DNA of 64,000 bases from Thermoplasmata archaeon (GTDB lineage: Archaea > Thermoplasmatota > Thermoplasmata > RBG-16-68-12 > JAFNFQ01), in the NCBI GenBank assembly GCA_041489255.1, contig JBGPQV010000007.1, forward strand, positions 4,006 to 68,005, read 5' to 3'. The number at the start of each line of letters is the position of its first letter. The stretch's first letter is position 1. The notes under the pieces are model-generated. The model did no database searches and was not told the DNA's origin. It saw only the letters and a list, made by a program, of their open reading frames with translations. A program made the translations under genes and the position numbers. This document shows, in pieces, positions 752 through 3,700 of the stretch.

Positions 752-3700
752 TCAACCGTTCACAATCCATGTCGCGTCAGCGGGGACGAATATCCAATAA
801 CCTTCACCCGGCTTCATGAGATAGCTGTCCTTGACTCGCTGAAGATAATAAGGCGCAGCGCTCGAATCGAACGCCTCAATGATTACCCCGGTGAGCCCGA
901 TATCAGCCTTGAGGTCTGCAACAGTGCAGGTCGTGTTGAGGGAGGGGAAGCCCACCATGTTCCACCCCTGGCGGAGATCGATCGCGGTCGAGGAGGATTC
1001 TGTGCCGCGGATGGTGAAGTTGCAGGCTGAGGTCACGTCGATCCAGAATCCCATCGTGTTGGTGAGTGCATGGAGGCCGTTGGCATCTCTTCCCGGGACG
1101 TAGGACTTCCAAGGGTTCATGGGATCAAGCGAATCGTACCAGCGTACGTAGTCGTAGCAGCCCGATATCGACGAGAGCACATTTTCGATGGTTACATCGA
1201 CGGCCGACAAGGGGAATGACATGAATCGCTTTCCGGGCGAGAGGGACATCGCAAACGATGAGACAACCTCGGCAGTTATGCAAGCCACATTATTGGTCTC
1301 GTTGGATTCCGCCACGGACCCAGGCGGCGGGTCTGCCCAGGCACATACGCTGTGATTTCCCACGAAGTCAGGTGTCCATGAGAATTGCAGTTCGATCTGC
1401 TGGTAAACGGGCAGACTGCCAGCAGACTTGATTTCGATTATCTCACTCGGGTCTACCTGCCCGTCGAAGTCGTAATCGTCAAAGGACGTTACGGAAAAGT
1501 CAGTGACGTTGGAATCGCCAACATTACTCACATTCACGTACAGAATGATCGATGTTCCGTTGGCAATGGGCGATTGTGGGACGGTATGAAGATCATTCGG
1601 AGAGATCAAGAGATCTGGGAGCTCGATAGGGCCCAGCTTAGCCACGAATCCATCGGTATTAAGATTGTAACTGGTATCGAACGCACTCGGCGTCACCGGG
1701 AAATCGGTAGAGTCTGTCTTGCCAGTGATGTAGACCGCACCTGCGGAGTCAACGGAAGCCGCAAGCCCTACCTCATAAGCGGAGCCCCCAATGAGCGTCG
1801 AATATGACAGGAGTCTCCCCGACTCGCCAAGTTGTATGACAAAAGCATCGCTTGAATTGAGGGTCCTGTCAATGGCATCAGGAGTCGTCGGGAAGTCGGG
1901 TGAAAATGTTCTGCCGGTTAAATAGAGATTCCCTAAAGCGTCCATTACAAGGTCGGAGGGCGATTCAGAGCTATTACCGCCGAGGAATGTTGAGTAGCTT
2001 AGAGTACTCGTATTGATGTCGAGGCGTGATAAGAACATGTCGGAAGTCCCATTCAATGACGCGTCAAGCGCGTCTGCGGTCACCGGAAAATCTGATGAAT
2101 CGGTCAGACCTGTAACGTAGAGAGCATCCGCTGAATCCTCGATCACGTACCCTCCATCTTCCCAGTCTGTACCTCCGATAAAAGTCGAATAGATTAGAGA
2201 AGTGCCTGCATTATTGAGCTTTGCCACGAATACGTCGCTGTAGTTGAAAGTTGTATCAAAGGAACCAGGAGTCACTGGGAAGTCTGCGGACAACGTGAAG
2301 CCTCCGACTACCATCTCACCGCGTTCATTGACGAATATGGAATTCCCCTCATCGCGCATGCTTCCGCCGAGGTACGTAGACGAGAGCAAAGCGTCCCCCG
2401 CATCGCTGAGCTTGAACACGAAGACTTCTTCTCTCCCTTTCGATGTTGAGCTGAACGCCCCGGGAGTTGTAGGGAAATCAGGTGAAAGCGTGGTGCCGCA
2501 AACATAGGTATTCCCACTGGAGTCTAGATACAGGGCATATCCTATGTCATTTGAACTTCCGCCGACGAAGGTGGAGAAGATTAGCCCGCTTCCGCTTGCG
2601 TTCAGTTTGAGCACAAAGGCATCGGACCCATGGTATGTTGTATCATAGGCTCCCGGAGTCACCGGGAAATCGGGAGATTGGGCTTCCCCCGTCACGTATG
2701 CGTTGCCGGAAGTGTCAACACTCAGAGCATAGGCGAACTCTTGGTAGGAACCACCTATGTAGGTTGAGTACGCGAGCGTATCCCCACTAGCGTTAATCTT
2801 CGTCACGAAGATACCGCCATTTCCCCACCATGTGTCAAACGCACCAGGCGTCACAGGAAAGTCAAACGATATTGTATGTCCAGTTACATATGCATTGCCG
2901 GCGCCATCCACATCAATCGCGTACGGTGCATCAGCATTCCAGCCTCCTAGATAGGTAGCGTAGATTAATGGGTCGATGGTTAGGGGCTTGGAGGGATTCC
3001 ATCCGTTGCAGTCGAACCCGTATGACGTTTCGCTTCGGGGAAGGAACTCGCAGTCGATTTCCTCTCCAATATCCTGATAGGAATATGGGGAAGAATCTCG
3101 CACGTCTCCCATGGTGGTCCGAATCGCAATGCCGGATGTTTCGATTCGCATCGATTCGATGCCTTCATAGGCCATATTGATGGATGCGGGATTCGCCCCC
3201 GCGCTGATCCTGAATTCATATTTCACACCGCCAAGAATCGGCTTGTAGATGAGGTCGATGCCATCGTATAGATTCTTATAGATCAACTCGCCGTAGTTCG
3301 GCACATCCGTCCTCCACTTGCTCGTGTCGTTGCCCAAGAAGAAGTTGCTGTTGAAGGGCAGGTGTCTCTCGCCGCTGGGGGCAATCATGTTTGCGCCATC
3401 GAATCGGAGTAAATATGTGACTGAATCGACCGGCTCCTCATTCGAACCAATAGAGGTCCTGAAGTCTGAAGTGCTGTTCCTGGTCCCCATCCCATTCCTC
3501 TCGTAATCATTTGCATCATGCAGAACAAACATCACCCCGTCGTCCATGAAAGCGACTGCGGGATTTCCCATCGCGTAATAGCGGATATTCTCGGCCACCT
3601 GACCCCTGTTCTCGACAAAGTAGTTGTTAAGAGAATCGAAGGCATCGAGGATGACCTGCTTCGTCGCTGTATTGGGAGGACTTGTGTCATTCCATGACGA

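Follow-up and report, generated by a model that had tools for sequence, protein, structure and literature searches.

Several described systems sort or hold extracellular proteins by means of a module at the C-terminus, among them the C-terminal domains of type IX secretion systems (T9SS), the GW, SLH and choline- or cell-wall-binding repeats, the dockerins and the archaeal PGF-CTERM signals of archaeosortase A. We know of no T9SS in archaea. Apart from membrane helices, lipoboxes and archaeosortase signals, little has to our knowledge been described of the means by which archaea that lack a classical wall retain enzymes on the cell. Sediments, soils and groundwater harbour abundant uncultured Thermoplasmata, which are thought to live on extracellular organic-matter breakdown; the way in which exoproteins are retained or released therefore matters for the ecology of this group. 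Here we analyze a stretch of 64,000 nucleotides (64 kb; the window) from a Thermoplasmata archaeon, contig JBGPQV010000007.1, in which two secreted proteins, encoded by open reading frames (ORFs) A and B, end in the same C-terminal domain of about 165 amino acids (aa), called the CTD below. The CTD is a large family that is not modelled in Pfam, NCBIfam or the PDB, and we tentatively read it as a module for surface retention. The features on which the comparison is built are the following.

752..3805, minus strand: ORF A, secreted protein of 1017 aa from a GTG start
1286..1618, minus strand: CARDB domain of ORF A, aa 730-840 (PF07705, E 1.3e-9), immediately before the CTD
1010..1249, minus strand: CTD repeat unit 1 of ORF A, aa 853-932 (unit hidden Markov model (HMM), domain E 1.8e-24)
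758..982, minus strand: CTD repeat unit 2 of ORF A, aa 942-1016 (unit HMM, domain E 5.3e-22)
44387..46909, minus strand: ORF B, secreted protein of 840 aa
44918..45235, minus strand: CARDB domain of ORF B, aa 559-664 (E 3.9e-8), immediately before the CTD
44645..44887, minus strand: CTD repeat unit 1 of ORF B, aa 675-755 (unit HMM, domain E 6.5e-24)
44393..44620, minus strand: CTD repeat unit 2 of ORF B, aa 764-839 (unit HMM, domain E 8.8e-22)

Both proteins begin with a signal-peptide-like hydrophobic stretch; for ORF A, a start at the first ATG (3772, MVRFPIVLIV...) is as plausible as the GTG. In the Pfam/NCBIfam scan, the signal peptide of ORF A is followed by DUF7948 (aa 63-280), SBBP beta-propeller repeats and CARDB, and that of ORF B by a TIGR03790-family region (aa 73-294), an unassigned middle part and CARDB. 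The CTD then occupies aa 848-1017 of ORF A and aa 671-840 of ORF B, in both cases outside the CARDB match. An earlier note, made from the DNA sequence of the window, had described a C-terminal domain about 50% identical over some 160 aa, placed after a CARDB-like module, attached to unrelated N-terminal parts and lacking a terminal transmembrane helix. Our analysis bears out each of these points. The last 171 aa of the two proteins are 56% identical (tblastn E about 1e-68), and the motifs that had been quoted are all present: GC(Y/F)DYVR(W/Y)Y, DP(M/V)(N/S)PWK, GWNMVGFPS, APYYL(Q/R)RV and GEGYWIFVP. Only the word "giant" for the two proteins does not hold, since at 840-1017 aa they are large rather than giant. 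In BLASTP the proteins share a single significant segment (ORF A 723-1017 with ORF B 549-840; 44% identity over 300 aa, E 2e-71), which together with the ordinary composition of the CTD rules out chance or low-complexity similarity. Both proteins stop 2-3 residues past the last conserved strand (...TWIVNG and ...SWNVPG, with stop codons at 752-754 and 44387-44389), and their endings, GEGYWIFVPADATWIVNG and GEGYWIFVPSSVSWNVPG, have no hydrophobic tail or C-terminal membrane helix. A six-frame profile scan of the window matches ORF A and ORF B alone, with no further copy of the CTD; a third copy suggested at 55035-55313 by a weak tblastn match (E 0.004) is a chance match, with no ORF at that place, an ORF-poor surrounding and no profile match.

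The CTD consists of two tandem copies of a beta-rich unit of about 80 aa. When the CTD is aligned with its relatives, a pattern of L..GWNL[IV][SG].P, 45-55 residues and G.GYW[IV] occurs twice. The N-terminal and C-terminal halves of 161 CTDs align with each other in hhalign (probability 98.5%, E 2.1e-15, 74 columns), and an HMM of the single unit matches each of the two window CTDs twice; the CTD is therefore a tandem duplication of this unit. The first GWNL has decayed to G(K/H)RF(M/L)SFP in ORF A and ORF B; in ORF A, unit 1 reads GKRFMSFP and ends with MGFWIDV, and unit 2 carries GWNMVGFP ... GEGYWIFV. AlphaFold2 predicts a nearly all-beta structure with one short helix per unit, in the order strand-strand-short helix-strands (two-unit model: pLDDT 82.3, pTM 0.73; single unit: pLDDT 88). 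Conserved positions are mostly Gly, Trp, Tyr, Pro and aliphatic or other hydrophobic core residues, and charged residues in the helix and loops are kept across the subfamily too, such as ADLKADxG ... VEGFD in unit 2. The junction between CARDB, or PKD in some relatives, and the CTD is short (about 6-13 aa), with no flexible linker or cleavage-like region. N-glycosylation sequons average 2.7 per CTD versus about 1.5 expected, and the sequon WIN[VI]T is found in 76 of 161 relatives. This enrichment fits an extracellular archaeal domain, and the CTD is probably N-glycosylated.

The searches proposed in the earlier note, with HMMER against Pfam and the PDB, and those that we added with NCBIfam and with predicted folds, placed the CTD in no known family and matched it to no known C-terminal sorting signal. 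Scanned as whole proteins against Pfam-A and NCBIfam (E up to 1), ORF A and ORF B have no match on their last ~170 residues. Twelve isolated CTDs (E up to 10) and ten more canonical relatives (E up to 1) likewise match nothing in these collections, including the Pfam models of GW, SLH, CW-binding, SH3b, PPC and dockerin. The T9SS model Por_Secre_tail (PF18962 / TIGR04183) matches neither the two ORFs nor the 12 CTDs at these same limits, and no NCBIfam model of the CTERM kind matches ORF A or ORF B, whose C-termini lack the tripartite order of motif, membrane helix and basic tail. PDB sequences gave no match by phmmer or by two profile searches. For the predicted structures, we counted as a fold match a TM-score of 0.5 or more together with a Foldseek E below 1e-3, and no solved fold in the PDB was matched significantly by either model. 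The two-unit model retrieved allantoicase, HA70 and vicilins weakly (best E 0.037, TM about 0.2). The best match of the single unit was the HcpR sensor domain (5v30_A; E 0.029, TMq 0.49), also weak, followed by cupin/ppnP-like small barrels at E above 0.2. From these matches of the model, a small jelly-roll-like barrel is at most hinted at. Against BFVD there was one match, a "putative hemin binding protein" of an uncultured marine phage (E 2.2e-4, TMq 0.62), which probably carries the same module and is uninformative on function; phage and plasmid collections gave no CTD match by tblastn, and the scan of IMG/VR gave one, weak and partial. Our full-text literature searches turned up nothing about it.

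The family is nevertheless large and frequent in metagenomes. An exhaustive HMMER search of 1.84 billion cluster representatives (50% clustering) found 10,197 representatives at E <=1e-3, 4,395 at <=1e-10 and 793 at <=1e-30; only this search makes the family visible, as a word-indexed homologue search returned 12 matches, all of about 320 aa or less and mostly evident fragments. The earlier note had also proposed a profile search for other proteins ending in the domain, and such proteins turn out to be the rule: the CTD lies within 5 aa of the protein end in 148 of 164 database proteins (the best 150 HMMER matches plus earlier matches) and in 82 of 90 stop-to-stop ORFs from GTDB representative genomes. 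An N-terminal hydrophobic stretch is present in 100 of 133 long relatives. The passengers are diverse. Among ten full-length relatives we found DUF7948 with SBBP and CARDB, NosD/beta-helix with or without CARDB, PKD, FG-GAP with transglutaminase and Big_1, beta-helix with Big_5, and an Omp28-like protein.

A genome scan found 281 relatives, and the following statements on loci refer to the best 80 of these. They lie in 33 metagenome-assembled genomes (MAGs), which carry the labels Thermoplasmata, Thermoplasmatota, Methanomassiliicoccales or unclassified Methanobacteriota; a single genome has as many as 11 CTD loci, and the CTD genes are scattered within the genomes. The suggestion in the earlier note that the domain is specific to this lineage stands for these closest loci, all of them in Thermoplasmata-type MAGs, but not for the unit itself, which among the 10,197 representatives also occurs in more distantly related proteins labelled Bacteroidales and Nanoarchaeota (the latter with an N-terminal membrane helix and two units). 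In two loci (L054 and L049) the CTD gene adjoins coaBC, as ORF A does. In the MAG bin_16 of JAFNFQ01 (locus L003), an orthologue of ORF B with 82% identity lies beside a TrpB-like gene with 97% identity to its counterpart, which indicates that the window comes from a close relative of this MAG.

Based on these findings, we put forward a tentative model, one possibility among several, in which the CTD is a non-catalytic extracellular binding module that may retain anchor-less exoproteins on the surface of the cell that produces them. The CTD would leave the cell by Sec as the final segment of its protein and would be joined rigidly to the Ig-like spacer (CARDB or PKD) ahead of it. In the Thermoplasmata lineage it would serve as a common handle on unrelated secreted enzymes and adhesin-like proteins without a membrane anchor. 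It would bind a common component of the cell's own envelope, for example a surface glycoprotein or a glycan, and this binding would hold the passenger domains at the cell surface non-covalently. With homology, internal duplication, extracellular context, C-terminal bias, diversity of passengers, number of copies per genome and absence from known families in hand, we infer that the CTD binds at all, what it may bind and that cells may retain proteins through it. We favour retention because the carriers have Sec-type N-termini and extracellular passengers, because about 90% of them are anchor-less, and because the CTD sits at the extreme C-terminus, has many carriers per genome, shows no catalytic signature and is membrane-proximal where a carrier is anchored. 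Other large surface proteins of the window rely on membrane helices, so that the CTD proteins form an anchor-less class beside them. Two of these are a 1805-aa surface protein (18423..23840, plus strand), with BNR, lamin-tail, VWA, two CARDB and OmpL47-type barrel domains followed by several terminal membrane helices, and an S8 subtilase (40774..43080) with a C-terminal membrane helix; these exoproteins are anchored by their helices and not by a CTD.

A more far-reaching version, which we regard as doubtful, would make the CTD the recognition handle of an undescribed surface-display system in uncultured Thermoplasmata. Sec would then export unrelated proteins, up to 11 or more from one genome, and the module of two repeats would dock them non-covalently to a single envelope receptor specific to the lineage, for example a glycan or an S-layer-like glycoprotein. 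In archaea, such a system would correspond to display of the cohesin-dockerin or SLH type, with a family that the databases do not model as its basis.

The similarity of CTDs within genomes bears on the retention model: CTDs that track a partner which they share and which is specific to the lineage should be more alike within a genome. The mean CTD identity is 51.8% within genomes (148 pairs) versus 40.8% between genomes (4,029 pairs). The CTD of ORF B is 56% identical to that of ORF A, but only 42% and 35% identical to those of two proteins from other genomes (loci L041 and L068) whose passengers are homologous to the ORF B passenger over most of their length, at 54% and 49% identity, respectively; the bin_16 orthologue of ORF B shows the same pattern. 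Concerted evolution of the CTDs within genomes was only partly borne out. The signal is real but partial, and, as judged from these alignments, it fits tracking of a shared partner, exchange of cassettes or lineage-specific expansion alike.

Several observations weigh against retention. The same-genome paralogue beats the orthologue in just 33 of 65 comparisons, a mixed signal, and lineage-specific expansion or cassette exchange would yield a similar pattern. The conserved residues, being mostly Gly, Trp, Tyr, Pro and hydrophobic core, make no binding site evident in the alignment, and the fold searches with Foldseek against the PDB and BFVD yield no functional analogue. No partner was found: when all ORFs around the 80 loci were clustered, no gene family occurred near CTD genes in more than 4 of them. 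The architecture of some carriers is also hard to reconcile with self-anchoring. P0026 (3424 aa) ends in a dockerin and contains five copies internally, interspersed with eight PKD domains and LamG. P0264, presumably bacterial, has a unit upstream of a genuine T9SS Por_Secre_tail. P0021 (862 aa, from a metagenome) carries two distal N-terminal copies in a membrane-tethered helix-turn-helix (HTH) protein, in the order signal peptide, two copies, PKD, membrane helix, and cytoplasmic HVO_0163-type and MarR-type winged-helix domains; it is a putative membrane-tethered transcription factor, and its domain order gives a hint that the module may be used to sense a ligand. By these architectures, the unit is a general repeat of extracellular proteins, and its fixation as two units at the terminus is a feature of the Thermoplasmata subfamily.

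These same architectures speak for the main rival reading, in which the tandem units would attach to a particle, to a different cell or to an external polymer and would deliver the passenger there, in the manner of a carbohydrate-binding module (CBM) or an adhesin. We consider this substrate-binding role possible, if somewhat unlikely. It would accommodate a promiscuous extracellular repeat that bacteria and archaea both have, with copy numbers of 2 to 5 or more and no fixed position; the location of the unit in the distal ectodomain of the sensor-like P0021; and its co-occurrence with true anchors (T9SS tail, dockerin, membrane helix), beside which a second self-anchor would be redundant. Conservation of Trp and Tyr, as seen here, is a typical trait of glycan-binding modules, and NosD/pectate-lyase-like beta-helices and BNR/SBBP propellers occur among the passengers. 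However, binding to a substrate requires neither the near-absolute C-terminal placement in the Thermoplasmata subfamily nor the likeness of CTDs within genomes. The conserved aromatic residues sit in predicted strands of the model and may merely form its core, and no likeness to a CBM or lectin was found in sequence or fold.

The preponderance of structural residues among the conserved positions (Gly, Pro, Trp, Tyr, aliphatic) raises a further alternative, in which the CTD would be a structural cap, spacer or oligomerisation module without a specific ligand that aids folding, stability or multimerisation after export by Sec. The short junction to CARDB or PKD without a flexible linker agrees with this idea, as does the sole, weak fold resemblance, to small jelly-roll/cupin-like barrels. 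We think it unlikely, since it leaves unexplained the exact C-terminal position in about 90% of carriers, the sharing of the domain by many unrelated passengers per genome, and the conserved charged helix/loop residues of unit 2.

That the CTD instead directs secretion or sorting from the C-terminus, as the archaeal analogue of a T9SS CTD or PPC domain, and is recognised by a dedicated machine that removes it or swaps it for an anchor, is very improbable: an extreme C-terminal position, many carriers per genome and diverse passengers are the pattern that defines T9SS CTDs, and an archaeosortase A gene in the window (62617..63543) shows that the organism has protein-sorting transpeptidases, but ORF A and ORF B already have N-terminal Sec-type signal peptides, no T9SS, PPC or CTERM model matches, the two proteins are without the motif, membrane helix and basic tail that archaeosortase substrates need, homologous copies are internal, N-terminal, fivefold or upstream of a T9SS tail, dockerin or membrane anchor, no machinery gene is linked in the 80 loci, and no linker or cleavage-like region precedes the domain. 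Of the roles suggested in the earlier note (secretion, anchoring or S-layer attachment), an obligate C-terminal secretion signal is thus disfavoured by the internal and N-terminal copies, and anchoring or S-layer attachment, which the CTD may perform, agrees with its C-terminal position in about 90% of proteins with unrelated passengers.

The archaeosortase A gene itself (minus strand; TIGR04125, 128 bits against a cutoff of 75) is convergent with the gene of a 1545-aa surface protein (57993..62630) in which a cytoplasmic tail of ~200 aa comes after a membrane helix. It shows that the organism has a PGF-CTERM-type sorting pathway beside its CTD proteins. Anchored variants of the CTD carriers also exist: 8 of the 164 database proteins and 8 of the 90 genomic ORFs (in six cases above 2,000 aa) extend past the CTD by a tail of 70-95 aa, in which a linker that is acidic or rich in Ser/Thr leads to a single membrane helix and a basic end, so that the CTD is the membrane-proximal, last globular domain. 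Loci L008, L017, L020, L051, L056 and L062 (match at about 6001-6500 in each) encode a conserved family of proteins of more than 2,000 aa with such an extension behind the CTD (acidic linker, single membrane helix, basic tail; an example is ...SSGGSSLFGLLLLLAVVCLAVRKHRN), in an exosortase/archaeosortase-like format. An assignment of these tails as PGF-CTERM-type signals was set aside, the CTERM models yielding sub-threshold hints only.

Of additional note are some features of the window outside the two CTD genes. The gene at 46879..51477 (plus strand), with DUF7948, SBBP and four PKD domains, is a paralogue of ORF A that ends in PKD domains and has neither a CTD nor a membrane helix. It is split by an in-frame TGA (stop 48976..48978, FPTTP*AFD, the asterisk being the stop), at which a homologue in locus L001 has Gly (SGAFD), so that GGA has changed to TGA. 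Because TGA is the normal stop in 10 of 14 window genes checked, we regard this as a nonsense mutation (pseudogene) or a sequencing error and not as recoding. At 54319..54423 lies a 105-bp copy of the 3' end of pyrF (55734..55842), 78% identical (score 53; 200 shuffles reached at most 16). Between these copies lie 1.3 kb without a convincing ORF but with degenerate 21-nt and 63-nt tandem repeats; judged by this layout, the region 54319..55842 looks like a small insertion with target duplication. The sole RNA gene found in the window is a tRNA-Gln (TTG) at 14513..14587 (plus strand). It overlaps the 5' part of a mechanically called ORF for a 4Fe-4S protein (13748..14605, minus strand), and the true start of this ORF must therefore be further downstream.

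With a model of the CTD, thousands of surface proteins now called "hypothetical" would receive an annotation of their C-termini, and the exoproteome of these archaea would gain a simple marker; if retention holds true, the CTD could also be used as a display tag. Among the known systems, the T9SS CTD resembles it as a beta-sandwich at the extreme C-terminus of many unrelated secreted proteins that also have signal peptides, with many carriers per genome. It differs in that there is no sequence match, the CTD described here is twice the size and built of two repeats, and the unit stands upstream of a genuine T9SS tail in P0264, which makes the two distinct things. The Listeria GW modules, SLH and the choline- and cell-wall-binding repeats are tandem C-terminal repeats of ~60-80 aa on diverse surface proteins, held at the envelope without a membrane anchor, and GW modules are likewise named for a conserved Gly-Trp. 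However, no Pfam model of GW, SLH, CW_binding or SH3b matches the CTD, Foldseek retrieved no SH3-like or SLH structures, and binding of the CTD to the envelope is what we infer. Dockerins are small C-terminal modules on many extracellular enzymes, and their sequence tends to track the cohesin of their own species; here there is no homology and no cohesin-like partner was found, and P0026 contains five copies of the CTD type plus a real dockerin. PPC and the Ig-like CARDB and PKD modules, too, are beta domains without catalytic function that stand at the C-terminal end of proteins for secretion, but the CARDB match does not include the CTD, no Ig-like or PPC model matches it, and its predicted unit has a short helix and weakly resembles small cupin/jelly-roll barrels, not Ig folds. 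The PGF-CTERM signal of archaeosortase A is again an archaeal C-terminal feature of surface proteins, in an organism whose window encodes the enzyme, but it is a short tripartite peptide, whereas the CTD is a globular domain of 165 aa without a hydrophobic helix. Terminal non-catalytic modules shared by secreted proteins are therefore a familiar kind of element; what is new here is the large unmodelled family, its build from two repeats and its expansion in Thermoplasmata.

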